From NCBI GenBank assembly GCA_964607415.1, contig CAZSKK010000001.1, positions 260,190-324,189 of the forward strand: DNA of 64,000 nt. The letters are read 5' to 3'. The stretch's first letter is position 1. Each line of letters opens with the position of its first letter. This document shows, in pieces, positions 5,202-55,235 of this stretch. Origin of the DNA: an uncultured Candidatus Saccharibacteria bacterium. Its GTDB lineage: Bacteria > Patescibacteriota > Dojkabacteria > J137. The translations under genes were made by a program, and so were the position numbers. The notes under the pieces are model-generated. The model saw only the letters and a program-made list of their open reading frames with translations. It made no database searches and was not told where the DNA came from.

Positions 5202-5272
5202 TTGCCGGACAGGGACTCGAACCCCGATTAACTGCTCCAGAGGCAGTCGTCCTACCATTAGACGATCCGGCA
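5202..5272 (-). tRNA. tRNA-Gln (anticodon CUG)
   Basis: Reverse complement folds as a cloverleaf: acceptor TGCCGGA/TCCGGCA (U1-A72, typical of bacterial tRNA-Gln), anticodon stem ACTGC/GCAGT, loop CTCTGGA, T-arm CGGGG-TTCGAGT-CCCTG. No CCA is encoded. Confidence 0.8.
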
Positions 5273-5498
5273 TTTTATGTTTTAATGAGCGGTAGCGAAG
5301 CAAAAATATTTAAATTTATGCCGACCCGAACTTGTCTGGGGACCCTAACTAAAAATAAATTATTTCCGAAATACTTTTTGTGTCCTACTCCCTATATTCA
5401 TCGGGACTTTCGAAAATTACGAGTTTTGCTACGCTTTGCAATTAGTCATTAGATTTTAATGATTCGTCATTCAGTCGATTTTTTGGTTTTATCTGGTC

Positions 5499-5527
5499 AA
5501 TTCCTCGATTTGCCTCGGAATGACACA
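5499..5527 (-). repeat. Copy D of the dispersed 28-bp repeat (TGTCATTCCGAGGcAAATCGAGGAAT), minus orientation, near tRNA-Gln
   Basis: Near-identical to copies at 46018, 46420 and 47297; a partial second copy (cgtcattcagtcga) lies at 5464-5479. Confidence 0.7.
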
Positions 5528-5637: not shown

Positions 5638-6471
5638 TCAGTTTATTCCATAAGCAATACTTACAATTACAAGAAGTATCAATACATACTCACCGGCTAA
5701 TGAAGGAGTCAGAGTTTTGTGAATTACATGGTGAATTCCTGCAATAAAGATGTAAAAACAAACTGTTAGAATTAAAGTGGTTTCCAGCTGATTTAGCTCA
5801 CTTATTTTATTTAAAGCCACAAACAGTAAACCAATTATTAGTGCAGATAATAAAGAGGGAAGTAAAACTTTAAATCTTAAATGTTCCAGTTTCCATAAAA
5901 TTAGTGAATTTAGAAGTGCTGAAGCTACAAATGTATAAAGGCTTGAAGCTATTAAAAGATTATTATTTTCATTTGCCAAATTTACGAATACATTAATTGC
6001 AGTAAAAAAAATTAGAAATTTTATAATGTCATAAACATAATGTGTGTTACTCTCAGCTTTTTTTCGGTCTTCAAAATATGCTCTAATATTTGTAAATAGA
6101 ACAAAAAAACATAGAAAGGTTACCGTTAATATTGGCAAAAGAATCCCGTTCTTAAAGTTGTAATATCCAAAGCCAACCAGTGAAATATATAACGCTATTG
6201 GTAAAAACAGTTTGTTAACCGTAAATAAAAGATCTCTTTCTGCTTCTTTTATATCAAGAGCTTTGTAAGATTTTATTTGATTTGTTTGCCAAGTTACAAA
6301 AATTTCAATTATAAAAAACAAGAAGATTATTCCAGTAAACGTAATAAAATTACTTTGATTATTGTATTCGTGAAGTTCTTGAAGCGATATATAAATTCCA
6401 ATTGTTAAAGAAAGAGAGTAAAAAAAGGTCCATAAATTTTTTGCAACAAAATTTCTTAAAAAACTTAACAT
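5638..6471 (-). CDS. Hypothetical polytopic membrane protein
   Basis: ORF encoding about 7-8 hydrophobic helices; no recognisable motifs. Confidence 0.45.
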   Translation of the reverse strand: MLSFLRNFVAKNLWTFFYSLSLTIGIYISLQELHEYNNQSNFITFTGIIFLFFIIEIFVTWQTNQIKSYKALDIKEAERDLLFTVNKLFLPIALYISLVGFGYYNFKNGILLPILTVTFLCFFVLFTNIRAYFEDRKKAESNTHYVYDIIKFLIFFTAINVFVNLANENNNLLIASSLYTFVASALLNSLILWKLEHLRFKVLLPSLLSALIIGLLFVALNKISELNQLETTLILTVCFYIFIAGIHHVIHKTLTPSLAGEYVLILLVIVSIAYGIN

Positions 6472-16226: not shown

Positions 16227-16559
16227 ATGTTTAAATCACACTTACGATTAAATCCAAAAGAAATTCCTGTGATTGCAAAGAAGGGTAAACGCTACTCAAG
16301 TGAGCTTCTGGATATAAAAATATGGTTTGATTCAAATCTTGAAAATTCACAATTTGCTATTAGCATTTCAACAAAGATTGATAAACGAGCAGTTGTTAGG
16401 AATAAAATTAAGCGAAAATTAAGAGTTGCAATACATGAATTAGAAAAAGAAAATTATTTTAAAAAAGGGAAATATCTAATCATTGTAAGAAGCGATAAGT
16501 TGAAGGAGGCTAAGAATGAGGAGTTGACGACTGCAATCAAAACAATTTTATCATTCTGA
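16227..16559 (+). CDS. rnpA: Ribonuclease P protein component
   Basis: 110 aa basic protein with RNR motif region VVRNKIKRKLR. No rpmH (L34) ORF is detectable upstream, which is unusual. Confidence 0.7.
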   Translation: MFKSHLRLNPKEIPVIAKKGKRYSSELLDIKIWFDSNLENSQFAISISTKIDKRAVVRNKIKRKLRVAIHELEKENYFKKGKYLIIVRSDKLKEAKNEELTTAIKTILSF

Positions 16560-16633
16560 AGAAAATCGAAGAATTGATAAAAATTGTCTTCTGCGTCATC
16601 TTTCGAGTTCCCCCAAGATGACACAGTTACTAC

Positions 16634-29973: not shown

Positions 29974-30058
29974 ATATAGTCTGCTTATTCAACTTACCTC
30001 TCTGTAGCAGAGGTCGATCATGCATTTTGTTTCATGATCACGTGAGATAAATAAAATT

Positions 30059-30107
30059 AGCTGATAGCTGATAGCTGATAGCTGATAGCTGATAGCTGAT
30101 AGCTGAT
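30059..30107. repeat. Perfect tandem array (AGCTGAT)x7 in the divergent intergenic region
   Basis: 49 nt of exact 7-bp repeats; palindromes GATCATG...CATGATC and TCACGTGA lie just upstream. Confidence 0.85.
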
Positions 30108-30260
30108 ATTACATTTTAGATTACTTAGAACAATTAGTGAACTTAGATTAATTTACCAAAATGATTATAGCAGGAAATTTTAAATATATAATCAGAATAT
30201 TGCATGTCGACAGTTAATGCCGTCTCGTGCTATAATAGATTATTAGTTTATTAAAAATAT

Positions 30261-44664: not shown

Positions 44665-45223
44665 AAAGTGTATTTGGCTCGCCCACATATTTATCGGTGT
44701 TGGCCAGCTCATCTATTTTATCAGCAAGATCTACAAGCTCTTGAGGTACTGTGTCCTCTAAACCATAAAGTTTAATTGATTTAAATTCGTCATCTAGCCG
44801 TAACGAAATAGTTGTAGAAGGCAAATCAGTTATATAAGGATCAACATATTCATCATCAAGATCAAAAAAATCAACGTCTTCAAACTCGCGAATTATTTTT
44901 GTTACATTGGCTTCAGGTATTGAATAGCTTTCGTTTTTTCCAGGGCTTTGCACAAAATTTCTACCTTCAAAGATTACTTCACCCGCTTCTGTTATAGTAA
45001 CAGTGTAATCCGGACAGAAACCAAAACACGCTTGTCTATCTAGTGTTATTTCAGCCTTGTCGTAATTAGAATATTCAGAATTATCTCCAACGGAAAAATT
45101 TATGTCTGAATCAAAATCTGAATTAAATAACATCGTTGCAGCAAGAACGCAGCAACTTATAATGCAACAAAGAACAATAAAAACTACAACAAAAAATGCT
45201 AATCCTTTTGAATTTTTTTCCAT
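44651..45223 (-). CDS. Hypothetical secreted/membrane-anchored protein
   Basis: N-terminal hydrophobic anchor LAFFVVVFIVLCCIISCCVLAA. Confidence 0.4.
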   Translation of the reverse strand: MEKNSKGLAFFVVVFIVLCCIISCCVLAATMLFNSDFDSDINFSVGDNSEYSNYDKAEITLDRQACFGFCPDYTVTITEAGEVIFEGRNFVQSPGKNESYSIPEANVTKIIREFEDVDFFDLDDEYVDPYITDLPSTTISLRLDDEFKSIKLYGLEDTVPQELVDLADKIDELANTDKYVGEPNTLYDED

Positions 45224-45251
45224 AATTTCTTGTTAATGGTTAATAGTTAAT

Positions 45252-45294
45252 AGCTGATAGCTGATAGCTGATAGCTGAATTAAGCATAGCTGAT
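45252..45294. repeat. Tandem AGCTGAT heptamers (three perfect plus imperfect copies; TTAATAG units just upstream)
   Basis: AGCTGATAGCTGATAGCTGATAGCTGAA...AGCTGAT, in a divergent intergenic region. Confidence 0.8.
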
Positions 45295-46017: not shown

Positions 46018-46048
46018 TGTGTCATTCCGAGGGAAATCGAGGAATACA
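46018..46048 (+). repeat. Copy A of the 28-bp repeat, left inverted repeat flanking the GIY-YIG gene
   Basis: TGTGTCATTCCGAGGGAAATCGAGGAATAC. Confidence 0.75.
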
Positions 46049-46103
46049 CTGGAAAATTTGTATTTGAGTACAATGTTAATTCTAAATATTGAGCATATAA
46101 TTA

Positions 46104-46415
46104 ATGATGCGAGAATATAAATTTTTTGTATACATACTTTTATGTGCAGATAATACCTACTATATAGGCGTAACTAATAATTTAGATAGAAGAATTAGCG
46201 AGCATAACTCTGGTGAAGTTGAAGGTTTTACAAGTTCAAGACTTCCGGTTCACTTACTTAAGTCATTCGGATTTAATGATATACGTTTAGCTATTGCATT
46301 TGAAAAACAAATTAAGAACTGGAGCAGAAAAAAGAAAGAAGCGTTAATTAATGAAGAATGGAATATTATCAGTAAGTTAGCAAAAAGGAGAACACCTAAT
46401 AAGCCACGTTCTTAG
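46104..46415 (+). CDS. GIY-YIG nuclease family protein (small, YhbQ/UPF0213-like)
   Basis: FFVYILLCADNTYYIGVTNNLDRRISEHN is a GIY-YIG core. Confidence 0.75.
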   Translation: MMREYKFFVYILLCADNTYYIGVTNNLDRRISEHNSGEVEGFTSSRLPVHLLKSFGFNDIRLAIAFEKQIKNWSRKKKEALINEEWNIISKLAKRRTPNKPRS

Positions 46416-46419
46416 TATG

Positions 46420-46448
46420 TCTCCCTCGATTTCCCTCGGGATGACATA
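46420..46448 (-). repeat. Copy B of the 28-bp repeat, right inverted repeat flanking the GIY-YIG gene
   Basis: Reverse complement TATGTCATCCCGAGGGAAATCGAGGGAGA, about 24/28 identical to copy A. Confidence 0.75.
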
Positions 46449-46618
46449 ATCTACTTAATCTTCAGCGTTAGACGCTTGATATGCATAGTGATCTAGTTCC
46501 AAGTTTGAAACGTCAATTTTTAAATCTTTTAGAATTGTAAGTTGATTGTTTATGGAAGTTTCTAGTTGTGTCATGTAGATATTTTACAATAAACTAAACG
46601 CAAGTGATGAGTTATTAT

Positions 46619-47251: not shown

Positions 47252-47296
47252 AAAGTCATTTTACAATAAAAATATGCGTCACTCGAAGAGATTCTT

Positions 47297-47328
47297 GTGT
47301 CATTCCGAGGGAAATCGAGGAATAGACA
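47297..47328 (+). repeat. Copy C of the 28-bp repeat
   Basis: TGTGTCATTCCGAGGGAAATCGAGGAATAGACA between the S51 and MBL genes. Confidence 0.75.
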
Positions 47329-47990: not shown

Positions 47991-48836
47991 TTAAAGCTTT
48001 ATTCCAGCTTTATCCGATTTAATAATCAAGTAATTAATAAACGACGAACTAGAAACAAGAAAGAAACGTGCATCTTCAAACTCTAACTTATCTTTGTCTA
48101 ATAGTGAATGACGTATGCCTCCTTCCTCATTAGTGTAACCATATAATTTTTTAAATGACTCTTTAAGTGCTGGGTGAATCTCAACCTTTCCTGACTTTTC
48201 AATAATGTTGAGTGCATCTCCTAGAGTAGCTTTGACATTATTTGAAATTTTTTTACAGATAGCTTCAACAGCACTTATAGATTCCTTAATTGAGTTACGA
48301 TAGTCTGGTACATTTTTATCTGAAATTTTATCAAGAGCATTTCTTAAATGAGAAGATACGTAATTAGGTGAGCTATCAATTGCACTTTCAATCTCTTCTA
48401 TTTCTTCTTTGGAAGTAATTTCCACAATACTTTCATCAACTATCCTGTAAGCAGATAATTCCCTTTCTAAAACATTATTGCAATCATTAATGAATGTATT
48501 TACATTGTAGCCAGGATAGCGTTTTATTGTAAATTCAATAAAGTCATACGCTTCATACCATTCAAACGAAAAATAATCAGCTCTTATTCCACTATATGTA
48601 TTTTTTGTATAAAGCTCTAATGTATCTAAAGGCCTCTTAAAAAAGCCAATCCAGAGAGCCTTAAAATAAGAATGCATTCTTTCATCATAACTTAACCATT
48701 CTTCTTTTCTTAACTCCTCCCAGATATAAAGTGATAAAACATTCCATAAGCCCACCTTTAAATCATCATCCATCGATTCTTTTTGAATTATTTGCTTTGG
48801 TTCCTTTATCCCTAATCTTTGCGAAAATATTACCAT
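47991..48836 (-). CDS. AbiJ-like abortive-infection candidate (N-terminal AbiJ-NTD-like region plus Abi_C/HEPN-like C-terminus)
   Basis: N-terminus MVIFSQRLGIKEPKQIIQKESMDDDLKVGLWNVL and C-terminus ATLGDALNIIEKSGKVEIHPALKESFKKLYGYTNEEGGIRHSL resemble the Abi_C conserved block as I recall it; not verified. Confidence 0.4.
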   Translation of the reverse strand: MVIFSQRLGIKEPKQIIQKESMDDDLKVGLWNVLSLYIWEELRKEEWLSYDERMHSYFKALWIGFFKRPLDTLELYTKNTYSGIRADYFSFEWYEAYDFIEFTIKRYPGYNVNTFINDCNNVLERELSAYRIVDESIVEITSKEEIEEIESAIDSSPNYVSSHLRNALDKISDKNVPDYRNSIKESISAVEAICKKISNNVKATLGDALNIIEKSGKVEIHPALKESFKKLYGYTNEEGGIRHSLLDKDKLEFEDARFFLVSSSSFINYLIIKSDKAGIKL

Positions 48837-53236: not shown

Positions 53237-53528
53237 TAGTTTTCTTTTTATAGTGTACTTCGGCCATGTTATAGGTTTACTTGAAATTGATGGCTATGCT
53301 CACCTAATCTTTATAGAACCTAGCTTATGCTACTTTTAAACAACTTGCCTTAAATACAACAAGTATATCTTTTAATTTTACTCTAAAGCTTTAACTCAAC
53401 AAGTTTGTATTTTCATTTTGAGAAAAAATGACAATGTATTAGAATTTAGTATGCTCAATTCGCTGACTTCAACTACCGAAGCTCAGAAATTTATCTTCAA
53501 AGTCTTTACTTTTTATTCTTTATACCCT

Positions 53529-55235
53529 ATGAGGAAAGTACCACTCAAAGCGTTTGGCGTTTTTGCCTTGACGCTGGTTCTTACTTTGTCTGGTTTTTCA
53601 ATGTTTCTAAGTAGCGTACATGCTACGCCGCTTTCAACGTTACAAGAAGATTTTGTAGACTTGGACGACTGGACAAACCTTCACGATAACCTTTATAGTT
53701 CTTCCATAAGCTCTGGTGAATTACTCTTTGCAAACATTCATAGTTTAGGTGTTGGAAAATTAGAATCTGAGTACGTAGAAGTTTCTAATTTACCCCATAC
53801 TTTAACTTACAGAACAAAAACTCAAGGTGCAAAATTTGTAAGAATTCAAGTAAAAGGGTTTGATTCTGATTTTGAACCAACTGAAGAATTTACCTGTACT
53901 GAAGAAAATCTGGAAGGAACAGTTGCGTACGATGAATATGAATGTCCGGTTACACTGTCTGAAGAGAACATAAATACTAGATATGTAAAAGTTACTATTA
54001 TGTTTAAAGCTAAAGTTCCTGGAGGGAAAACATGGTTTGATTATATTTATTTAGACGAAGATACAGTTACTGCAAAGACGTGGCAAGAATTAGGTTCAGG
54101 ATCAGCTTCATCAAACGGAATTTCTAATACTTCAACTGCATCAGAATTGTGGGGCTTGGAATATGATTCCAATGATAATCCTGTTGTAGGCTGGATAGAT
54201 ACGGATACAGGTGTAAGCCATGTTCAAAAATTTAACGGTACTAGTTGGGATGAGCTTGGAGACCCAGGAGATCAAGGTGGATATCTTGCGTTTGACTCAA
54301 ATGATGATTTATATGTAACCTGGTGGGCTCAACAATCTGGCGGTGATAACGAAATCTATGTTAAAAAGTTTGATGGAACAGATTGGGTTGATGTTGGTTC
54401 AGGTTCTGGATCAGGTGGAGGAATTAGTAATAATTCAACTGATTCAGTTGGCCCAAGAATGGTTATAGACTCGAACGATAATATTTATGTAATCTGGCAT
54501 GATGCAGATTCAGGGGATTATGAAATTTATGTAAAAAAATTTAACGGCACAAATTGGGTAGATGCTGGTACTAACTCTTCTTCAAGCGGAGGAATTAGCA
54601 ATAACGGTGGACACTCTTTCATAACTGATATAGAGCTAATGGCTGATGGTGTAACACCAGTAGCCGCATGGCAAGATCAATCAGGTGGAGGTAATAATGT
54701 TTATATGAAAAAATTTAATGGCACAAGCTGGATTGAACTTTACTCAGGCTCTGCCTCAAGTGGTGGGGTTACAGGCAGTAATCAAGCCGGCTTTAGATCA
54801 ATGGCTATTGACTTAACTGACAATATTTACATAACATGGATTGATTACAAATCTCAAGGATCTAATGAAGATATTTACGTAAAAAGATTTGATGGCAGTA
54901 ATTGGTATGAAGTTGGTACTGGTTCGGCATCAAGCTCTGGAATTGGAAATACAGGAACCACATGGGGACATGTTGATATAAATCTAGACGAAAATGGACT
55001 TCCATATGTTGCCTGGGCTGAAACAAATGGTGGTGACTTTGAAACATTTGTAAAGAGATTTGACGGAACAAGTTGGGTTAGTATTGCAGGTTCTGGAACT
55101 GGAACGGGTATTAGTAATACTTCTGCAAGATCTTCCTCACCAAGGGTTAGGATATCATCAACGGGTGTCCCTCTGGTTGCATGGATTGATGCTACACCTG
55201 GAAATGATGAAATTTTTGTAAAGTGGTATAAGTAA
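53529..55235 (+). CDS. Secreted repeat protein, probable 7-bladed beta-propeller
   Basis: Signal peptide MRKVPLKAFGVFALTLVLTLSGFSMFLSSVHA, then about seven ~55-aa repeats each with [YF]VKKF[ND]GT.W...G.GS.SSGGIS. Confidence 0.5.
   Translation: MRKVPLKAFGVFALTLVLTLSGFSMFLSSVHATPLSTLQEDFVDLDDWTNLHDNLYSSSISSGELLFANIHSLGVGKLESEYVEVSNLPHTLTYRTKTQGAKFVRIQVKGFDSDFEPTEEFTCTEENLEGTVAYDEYECPVTLSEENINTRYVKVTIMFKAKVPGGKTWFDYIYLDEDTVTAKTWQELGSGSASSNGISNTSTASELWGLEYDSNDNPVVGWIDTDTGVSHVQKFNGTSWDELGDPGDQGGYLAFDSNDDLYVTWWAQQSGGDNEIYVKKFDGTDWVDVGSGSGSGGGISNNSTDSVGPRMVIDSNDNIYVIWHDADSGDYEIYVKKFNGTNWVDAGTNSSSSGGISNNGGHSFITDIELMADGVTPVAAWQDQSGGGNNVYMKKFNGTSWIELYSGSASSGGVTGSNQAGFRSMAIDLTDNIYITWIDYKSQGSNEDIYVKRFDGSNWYEVGTGSASSSGIGNTGTTWGHVDINLDENGLPYVAWAETNGGDFETFVKRFDGTSWVSIAGSGTGTGISNTSARSSSPRVRISSTGVPLVAWIDATPGNDEIFVKWYK

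Follow-up and report, generated by a model that had tools for sequence, protein, structure and literature searches.

The closest described counterpart of the locus analysed here is the nuclease-repeat pairing reported by Chenal et al. [quoted passage not shown] For SsnA of Neisseria meningitidis (NMV_0044/NMB0047), a protein of 94 aa, the target is NTS (CGTCATTCCCGCGMAVGCGGGAATCYRG), a hairpin repeat that makes up a subset of dRS3. SsnA binds this repeat solely as ssDNA and cuts a few nucleotides upstream of it; it does not act on double-stranded DNA (dsDNA), on the complementary strand or on RNA, the last of which it does not bind (PMC11893778). Cleavage is abolished by the substitutions Y6A, Y17A and E64A, and the most important base for binding is the cytosine directly after the palindrome (PMC11893778). 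The repeats lie in extragenic DNA or at gene ends, as do the copies described below, and SsnA causes a roughly five-fold drop in transformation by NTS-bearing DNA (PMC11893778). Enzymes of this family have been characterised from Neisseria, N. elongata, N. wadsworthii and Wolbachia, and 71% of the Ssn homologue genes have at least one SRM nearby, with 42% having an SRM on both sides (PMC11893778).

The repeats of this kind had been catalogued earlier as CGTC-tagged REPs, including Neisseria dRS3 and Rickettsia RPE-4/6, by Di Nocera et al. (BMC Genomics 2013; PMC3733652). In that survey the tag is often TGTC, the stems begin with A-T and T-A pairs, and the elements are located downstream of ORFs; it identified no enzyme that goes with the repeats (PMC3733652).

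The 64-kb window (the whole stretch of Dojkabacteria DNA that was analysed) contains a locus whose sequence makes it quite probably an Ssn-type single-domain GIY-YIG endonuclease together with its cognate repeats, which are tagged hairpins like the CGTC/TGTC REPs or "SRMs" (Table 1). Because the architecture matches the Ssn nuclease and repeat pairing of 2025, the locus is a new example of a known pairing; it does not represent a novel type of mobile element or of system. The support from this analysis consists of homology, catalytic residues, repeat architecture, covariation in the hairpins, and a family-wide association of gene and repeat.

Table 1. The nuclease gene, the repeat copies and a neighbouring tRNA gene in the 64-kb window
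Feature	Position	Strand	Remarks
tRNA-Gln(ctg)	5202-5272	-	
Degenerate remnant (CGTCATTCAGTCGA)	5465..5480	+	no longer folds
Solo copy, loop variant (GAGGCAAATCGA)	5496..5527	-	
Diverged copy (TATCATTCTGAAGAAAATCGAAGAAT, 5 mismatches)	16549..16574	+	ATTCT/AGAAT preserves hairpin; overlaps rnpA end
Diverged copy (TGTCATCTTGGGGGAACTCGAAAGAT, 8 mismatches)	16598..16623	-	ATCTT/AAGAT preserves hairpin
Upstream repeat copy	46018..46049	+	TGTC tag, ATTCC-GAGGGAAATCGA-GGAAT hairpin, GTGT/ACAC outer stem
GIY-YIG nuclease gene, Ssn-like, single-domain, 103 aa	46104..46415	+	
Downstream repeat copy, inverted (ATGTCATCCCGAGGGAAATCGAGGGAGACAT)	46416..46448	-	TCCC/GGGA stem, compensatory vs TTCC/GGAA
Solo copy	47296..47328	+	26-nt core identical to upstream copy

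The protein is a bare catalytic domain without a DNA-binding module. PF01541 covers residues 7-78 of its 103 aa (E=2.6e-18), and the sole other Pfam match, T5orf172 (PF10544, E=9e-4), overlaps that same stretch. The SsnA of N. gonorrhoeae, a sequence taken from the NTS-surrounded ssnA locus on a chromosome filed as a plasmid, is 44% identical to it over 78 aa in BLASTP (E=8e-14). Residues Y10, Y20 and E67, invariant in 47 relatives, align with Y6, Y17 and E64 of SsnA, and the window protein and SsnA have in common an EGFTS motif where the UPF0213 proteins have GKGAKYT. In tblastn the window protein and SsnA match at 1e-9 in a small database, and on the scale of a whole genome the value would be about 1e-9, which is borderline, just outside the threshold of 1e-10 that Chenal et al. 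applied to a genome.

The UPF0213 proteins (B. subtilis YazA, BH0048 = PDB 1zg2, EF2693 = PDB 1ywl, E. coli YhbQ) have the same small GIY-YIG fold and are 36-39% identical to the window protein, at 50-66 bits. SsnA scores 47 bits against the window protein and at most 30 bits, or nothing, against the UPF0213 proteins, and its match to PDB 1zg2 has an E-value of 0.13; the window protein itself matches 1zg2 at 6.7e-14, and an HMM of the window clade scores YazA (82 bits) and BH0048 (80 bits) above SsnA (65 bits). Because SsnA prefers the window protein, yet the clade HMM and 1zg2 tie the clade clearly to UPF0213, the window clade sits, by these sequence scores, between the two. A PDB sequence search matched UPF0213 structures only and no SsnA structure.

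The 22-nt core of the repeat, GTCATYCCGAGGSAAATCGAGG, was found at four sites in the window but never in 100 dinucleotide shuffles, and a 30-mer with up to three mismatches matches at 5498-5527(-), 46018-46047(+) and 47296-47325(+), again with no match in 100 dinucleotide-preserving shuffles; the core falls at these three sites and at 46424-46445(-). The arms around the nuclease gene (46020-46048 and 46418-46446, 29 nt each) are 90% complementary. The first-pass annotation of this DNA had described a 103-aa gene bracketed by inverted repeats, and its sequence and coordinates proved correct; the solo copies that it placed at 47297 and 5499 are, by their 30-mer and core matches, the same element as the bracketing copies, and the degenerate partial copy that it saw beside the latter is the CGTCATTCAGTCGA remnant, which spans 5465-5478(+) proper and lies tail-to-tail with the copy at 5496-5527. 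A mismatch-tolerant scan added an inverted doublet of diverged copies (16549-16623) between the convergent rnpA and pheS genes, in which both hairpins are retained by compensatory changes. The density is 4-7 copies per 64 kb, and the repeat is indeed GC-rich as had been remarked, at about 50% compared with 32% for the window.

All of the window copies lie outside coding regions or at their very end, 0-111 nt past stop codons. The upstream copy lies 32 nt past the stop of a sortase-like gene and ends 56 nt short of the GIY-YIG ATG, with its tag end facing away from the nuclease gene, and the downstream copy begins 1-3 nt past the TAG stop of that gene. The copy at 47296 is 8 nt past the stop of the MBL gene (11 nt from the end of the 30-mer, at 47325) and is situated upstream of the S51 peptidase gene, 45 nt from its start, both genes being on the minus strand, while the copy at 5496-5527 lies 111 nt downstream of a gene at 5638-6471(-) and 226 nt from tRNA-Gln.

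The ability to fold that the first-pass annotation had read from ATTCC...GGAAT extends to every full copy in the window: as ssDNA, all except the remnant at 5465-5480 are predicted to give the same hairpin. An outer stem takes in the tag (GTGT/ACAC, TGTC/GACA, ATGTC/GACAT or GTC/GAC), the inner stem is ATTCC/GGAAT, and the 12-nt "loop", GAGGGAAATCGA, is open to a reading in which G.A, A.G, G-C and G.T pairs close a GAAA tetraloop. The element can be written as TGTC + ATTCCGAGG / GAAA / TCGAGGAAT, with nine stem positions of which two are G.A. Stems that differ by compensatory changes are found within the window (TTCC/GGAA, TCCC/GGGA in the 3' copy, and TTCT/AGAA plus TCTT/AAGA in the doublet) and in a related locus, L023 (CGGT/ACCG). 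The predicted hairpin energies are modest, from -3.6 to -6 kcal/mol with z-scores of -0.75 to -2.2, and the doublet at 16549-16623 folds more strongly (dG -14.2 kcal/mol, z -4.15). The conservation of the tandem G.A motif suggests that it is a structural recognition feature.

In its overall design the locus closely resembles that of Ssn and NTS. The product consists of one GIY-YIG domain, is about 100 aa long, within the 90-110 aa or so of the Ssn family, and keeps the catalytic residues Y, Y and E; its gene is bracketed by inverted GTC-tagged hairpins, in the family's size range of 20-50 nt, with stems that start with ATTCC and end with GGAAT, so that GTCATTCC...GGAAT is common to this repeat and the Neisseria NTS; more copies are dispersed in intergenic DNA; and the pairing of gene and repeat recurs in most relatives. 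The two repeats differ in detail. The inner part of the window hairpin, GAGGGAAATCGA, is interrupted by G.A/A.G and has a GAAA loop, whereas in the NTS a CGCG stem pairs perfectly; the palindrome is followed by A or T in the window repeat and by C in the NTS; and the window tag can pair with a 3' GAC, whereas the NTS tag is unpaired. The tags point outward in the window and in most close relatives but toward the gene at the gonococcal and Methylobacterium loci. Unlike the Neisseria systems, the present one belongs to a candidate-phylum (Dojkabacteria) bacterium and has a low copy density, and its activity is predicted from sequence.

Searches with the published SRM pattern, HGTCWYN(0-2)YYVSBRHN(0-5)WNVSBRGN(0-2)RNCYNB, gave no matches in the window, where every repeat copy would need at least three substitutions to fit, and the same code found eight matches around the gonococcal ssnA ORF, seven of them exact NTS. 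The window repeat fits the description of the CGTC REPs, which have a terminal tag of the CGTC/TGTC/CCTC set, a stem of 8-9 positions, a loop of 4-5 and an extragenic position, mostly downstream of genes (PMC3733652). The likeness extends to the terminal tag (TGTC in the window), the nine-position stem starting with A-T and T-A, the short loop, the extragenic location downstream of genes and the frequent inverted dimers; the window repeat differs from the elements described there in having two non-Watson-Crick stem positions and no "CCA" tail, and CPR bacteria are not among the phyla reported in the part of that survey used here.

Evidence that gene and repeat belong together comes from relatives of the nuclease. 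The sample consisted of 80 metagenomic loci of the closest relatives along with Dojkabacteria-like loci, and 76 non-redundant cellular loci were scanned for the structural pattern tag-stem-GAG...TCGA-stem' within 200 nt of the gene, with shuffled flanks as the control. A hairpin of the same design was found at 61 of the 76 loci (80%), compared with 7 of 1520 shuffles (0.5%), and on both sides of the gene at 36 (47%), compared with none of the 1520. These counts bear out the linkage between gene and repeat that had been suspected from the window alone, for which a survey of other GIY-YIG genes had been proposed. At most loci, the best inverted repeat between the flanks consists of a GTCA or GTTC tag, a stem, (T)GAG...TCGA(A) and the complementary stem, as in TGTCACCCTGAGCTTGTCGAAGGGT and TGTCACGGTGAGGCTCTCGAACCGTAC, and the commonest layout is that of the window, with the upstream copy on the plus strand, the downstream copy on the minus strand and the tags outward. 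The stems covary: among 198 relaxed matches, 132 carry a 3-nt stem whose two sides are fully complementary, for which the chance expectation is 1/64, the matches include nine different stem triplets, and in 95% the pair that follows on the outside is also Watson-Crick. A Dojkabacteria homologue (P0002) has three copies of the same design around its gene. The association did not extend to viral-contig homologues (0 of 73 with such a hairpin) or to the UPF0213 genes of Bacillus and Listeria, which overlap trmNF and rsmI in a housekeeping operon, leaving no flanks and carrying no flanking repeats. The published SRM pattern had no match in the flanks of the 76 relatives, and the clade therefore carries a repeat class outside that pattern.

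This association also bears on the reading of the repeats as ordinary REP-like RNA or DNA structures (3'-end mRNA stabilisers, terminators or supercoiling sites) whose placement by the gene is incidental or purely regulatory. All of the copies do lie just past stop codons, between convergent or co-directional genes, and Di Nocera et al. make the case that REPs are in many instances transcribed and function as hairpins at the RNA level (PMC3733652). Such an explanation is nonetheless very unlikely, given an association with one gene family that is far above chance across phyla and absent in viral and UPF0213 homologues. Furthermore, a promoter and terminator consensus scan around the GIY-YIG gene gave nothing above shuffles, with neither a T-run nor a terminator-like site; an Rfam search at gathering and at permissive thresholds returned two tRNAs and chance-level matches, with no family for the repeat; and RNA is not bound by SsnA (PMC11893778).

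A different proposal makes the protein either a free-standing homing endonuclease of the GIY-YIG type or a nuclease that acts against phage in a defence island. GIY-YIG homing endonucleases exist, and the one NCBIfam match of the window protein is to a group I intron endonuclease model, TIGR01453; however, at 20 bits this match falls short of the model's cut-off, which is 56. The protein lacks a DNA-binding domain, and there is no intron or intein context. As for defence, a gene nearby (47991-48836) matches AbiJ_NTD4 and the PADLOC candidate PDC-S32 (1.7e-107), but the nuclease itself has no meaningful PADLOC match (E=0.0085, 13 bits), and the wider context is one of chromosomal housekeeping genes: UvrA, Mfd, an AddA-like helicase, PheS, RNase P protein and YchF. 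Either role would also leave the dispersed cognate hairpins unexplained, and the proposal as a whole can be considered extremely improbable. The homing element of the first-pass annotation is accordingly not supported by this bare 103-aa domain, and an enzyme of the I-TevI type was rejected on its size, the TIGR01453 score and the housekeeping context.

A more serious alternative is that the locus is an autonomous cassette resembling an insertion sequence (IS) or a REPtron, in which the nuclease mobilises itself and the hairpins, the flanking copies are the ends, and the solo copies and doublets are footprints or else derivatives of a non-autonomous, REPIN-like sort. With its inverted repeats the locus is built like an IS, a resemblance of repeat-flanked genes on which Chenal et al. 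themselves remarked, as a hypothesis only (PMC11893778), and CGTC REPs have no known transposase (PMC3733652). The window also contains doublets without a gene (5465-5527 and 16549-16623), with their tags outward as in the cassette, and the GIY-YIG gene is found in differing neighbourhoods among Dojkabacteria-like contigs. The exact core had no match in viral contigs and none in a CPR genome among 185,579 species representatives, but an identical 22-mer is present in Verrucomicrobia and Nitrospirae metagenome-assembled genomes (MAGs). In the Nitrospirae MAGs it is part of a larger composite element, about 170 nt long and present in multiple copies, at which contigs often end, and repeats of such a kind therefore do proliferate; no GIY-YIG gene was found near the 22-mer within the 4.4-8 kb fetched from the Nitrospirae and Verrucomicrobia MAGs.

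Several observations on the cassette itself argue against such mobility. No direct target-site duplication abuts the outer ends of the arms, where one had been suggested as a check; the TAGAT/ATCTA flanks simply extend the inverted repeat. The 430-bp cassette is present once in the window, which has no second GIY-YIG gene, and the copies elsewhere in it occur as single hairpins or as doublets of hairpins and not as cassette ends, so the earlier idea that the solo copies are footprints of the cassette is not supported. In strains with a 96-100% identical protein the gene is at the same locus; the strain with a 96%-identical protein agrees with the window in both the neighbouring genes and the repeats; and every contig with an identical S51 peptidase carries the cassette. 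The comparison of related loci that had been proposed for presence or absence of the cassette thus gave presence in all close strains, and the MITE-like cassette with terminal inverted repeats that the first-pass annotation had put forward is disfavoured on these grounds. A MITE or insertion sequence was rejected, in view of the missing flanking direct repeat, the single-copy unit and the dispersed copies that are not bounded by terminal inverted repeats.

Across 97 loci, wherever genes align at 85% nucleotide identity or more and flanks are available, the flanks are homologous too, with the exception of the pair L028/L032, which is 85% identical over 305 nt; this pair is not decisive on mobility because its alignment is confined to the gene and excludes the repeats. 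The Sphingomonad loci are syntenic (nrdR, GIY-YIG, RNA methyltransferase). None of the loci compared showed a related cassette in different surroundings whose homology stopped where the repeats end. For the S51 peptidase, homologues with 76-78% identity have unrelated neighbourhoods, and there is therefore no syntenic empty site to compare. A 466-nt indel beside the upstream repeat, seen between L081 and L070, was rejected as an element, being a small membrane-protein gene. The geometry would also be unfavourable, since with outward tags on opposite strands the predicted nicks would free no single cassette strand, unlike the excision of IS200/IS605 elements. GIY-YIG enzymes are not known to have strand-transfer activity, which likewise counts against an autonomous cassette. 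Taken together, this explanation is unlikely as an account of the present locus, although it is compatible with the Ssn reading and could describe the evolutionary origin of the Ssn system.

A related and slightly less probable proposal is that the TGTC-tagged, G.A-interrupted hairpins and the GIY-YIG nuclease form a self-propagating system like REPIN/RAYT, with the GIY-YIG enzyme in place of the tyrosine transposase and the gene-less doublets (5465-5527 and 16549-16623) as its non-autonomous offspring. The likeness to REP/RAYT systems (REPtrons, REPINs) lies in a single-copy nuclease gene between inverted copies of a dispersed hairpin, in the doublets, and in a 5' tetranucleotide tag with what would be recognition of an ssDNA hairpin. 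The differences are that the enzyme is a GIY-YIG nuclease and not an HUH/Y1 transposase, that the tag is (C/T)GTC and not GTAG, and that no transposition chemistry is known for a GIY-YIG nuclease. Membership in the REP/RAYT (REPtron) class was rejected on the enzyme and the TGTC tag, and the architecture alone is analogous. If the proposal were true, the long-missing mobilising enzyme of CGTC-type REPs would have been found, in a reduced CPR genome.

The repeats are better explained as probable ssDNA recognition sites of the nuclease than as parts of a mobile element. By homology to characterised Ssn enzymes, which are at most 44% identical to the window protein, we infer for the window nuclease cleavage of ssDNA, a cut position and a biological role, as follows. 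When repeat DNA becomes single-stranded, the strand 5'-TGTC-ATTCC-GAGGGAAATCGA-GGAAT would fold into its hairpin; the ssDNA might be incoming transforming DNA, the lagging-strand template, or an intermediate of repair or recombination. The nuclease would recognise tag and hairpin by sequence and shape and would nick a few nucleotides 5' of the tag, on the strand reading TGTCATTCC..., leaving dsDNA, RNA and the complementary strand uncut. The two bracketing copies are inverted with their tags outward, and there should therefore be one cleavable site per strand just outside the cassette; that is, the predicted nicks around the gene fall on opposite strands, just beyond its repeats. The dispersed copies, every one of which is in a 3' intergenic spacer, would be further places at which ssDNA could be cut.

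The likely effect of the Ssn-type nuclease would be to shorten or limit the recombination tracts of incoming or exposed ssDNA that bears the repeat. CPR bacteria usually encode machinery for DNA uptake; no gene for it was found among the 20 large window ORFs that were scanned.

The locus extends the Ssn nuclease-hairpin pairing described in 2025 to a Dojkabacteria genome, within the candidate phyla radiation. It also brings to light a repeat class, tag-stem-GAG...TCGA-stem', that is missed by the published SRM pattern and yet flanks about 80% of the genes of the clade. For annotation, such hairpins account for many spurious short ORFs and contig breaks. For enzyme discovery, each clade is a candidate source of an ssDNA-specific endonuclease with a new recognition sequence. 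Finally, loci of this kind bear on whether Ssn nucleases spread their own repeats.

The 22-nt core of the cassette's hairpin repeats recurs in other phyla. At seven loci of the Nitrospirae MAG B7D1T1, the core was found embedded in a larger composite element, roughly 170 nt long (CTAAGTCCATCGATTCATAAGTTCGATGAC...GCACTAAG). A further hairpin overlaps the core in this element and has the GAG...TCGA design; hairpins of this class (tag-stem-GAG...TCGA-stem') occur near most of the GIY-YIG genes related to that of the window. The composite repeat is frequently located at contig ends, which implies a high copy number. Cores identical to that of the window (GTCATTCCGAGGGAAATCGAGGAAT) were also detected at six loci from Udaeobacter/Verrucomicrobiae MAGs, which belong to a distant phylum, and no GIY-YIG gene was found near these cores within the 8 kb fetched. 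The Verrucomicrobiae cores are followed by a C (GGAATCCC), and a C likewise occupies this position in the Neisseria NTS, the hairpin repeat recognized by the single-domain GIY-YIG ssDNA nuclease SsnA. The ssnA locus used here was obtained from a chromosome filed as a "plasmid" in PLSDB. Several 2-3.7-Mb records in this collection (NZ_CP119142.1, NZ_LR743510.1 and others) are chromosomes or chromids, and one of the mislabelled "plasmids" is a Neisseria gonorrhoeae record of 2.17 Mb.

At loci from Sphingomonas, B. subtilis and Listeria, small GIY-YIG genes of both clades (that of the window protein and UPF0213) directly adjoin or overlap genes for RNA methyltransferases. The gene order is nrdR, GIY-YIG, RNA methyltransferase in Sphingomonas, and trmNF, yazA, rsmI in the Firmicutes B. 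subtilis and Listeria. Two metagenome loci, L081 and L070, differ by a 466-nt indel that immediately precedes the upstream repeat of the cassette. The product encoded by the indel is a small membrane protein, about 100 aa in length; both loci have an intact cassette.

Features of the window outside the cassette are collected in the table. The stop codon of the 39-aa ORF is separated by 7 nt from the 3' repeat (the hairpin copy downstream of the nuclease gene), and the ORF is among the genes called on several Logan contigs. Three genes away from the nuclease gene lies the AbiJ-domain gene, whose product matches the PADLOC candidate system PDC-S32 at 1.7e-107. The two heptamer arrays are spaced about 15 kb apart.

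Coding and repeat features of the window outside the cassette
Feature	Position	Strand	Remarks
GCTGATA (ATAGCTG) array	30050-30134		~5-6 units
GCTGATA (ATAGCTG) array	45222-45292		~5-6 units; divergent intergenic region, directly upstream of the sortase-like gene preceding the cassette
39-aa ORF, MTQLETSINNQLTILKDLKIDVSNLELDHYAYQASNAED	46455-46574	-	occupies the gap from the 3' repeat to the S51 peptidase gene
281-aa protein	47991-48836	-	AbiJ N-terminal domain 4 (1.9e-34)
605-aa ORF	53418-55235	+	no Pfam match
Tandem coding repeats in the 605-aa ORF	54097-55123		4-5 repeats of 171-174 nt each

The closely related strain L106 differs from the window at 21 nucleotides over 1194 nt, and 14 of these differences are crowded into the 52 nt at the 3' end of the GIY-YIG gene, adjoining the 3' repeat (L106 1116-1168; window 46364-46416). 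The repeat itself shows no difference between the two. Although the L106 contig stops within this repeat, the clustering of the differences beside it resembles the boundary of a recombination tract.
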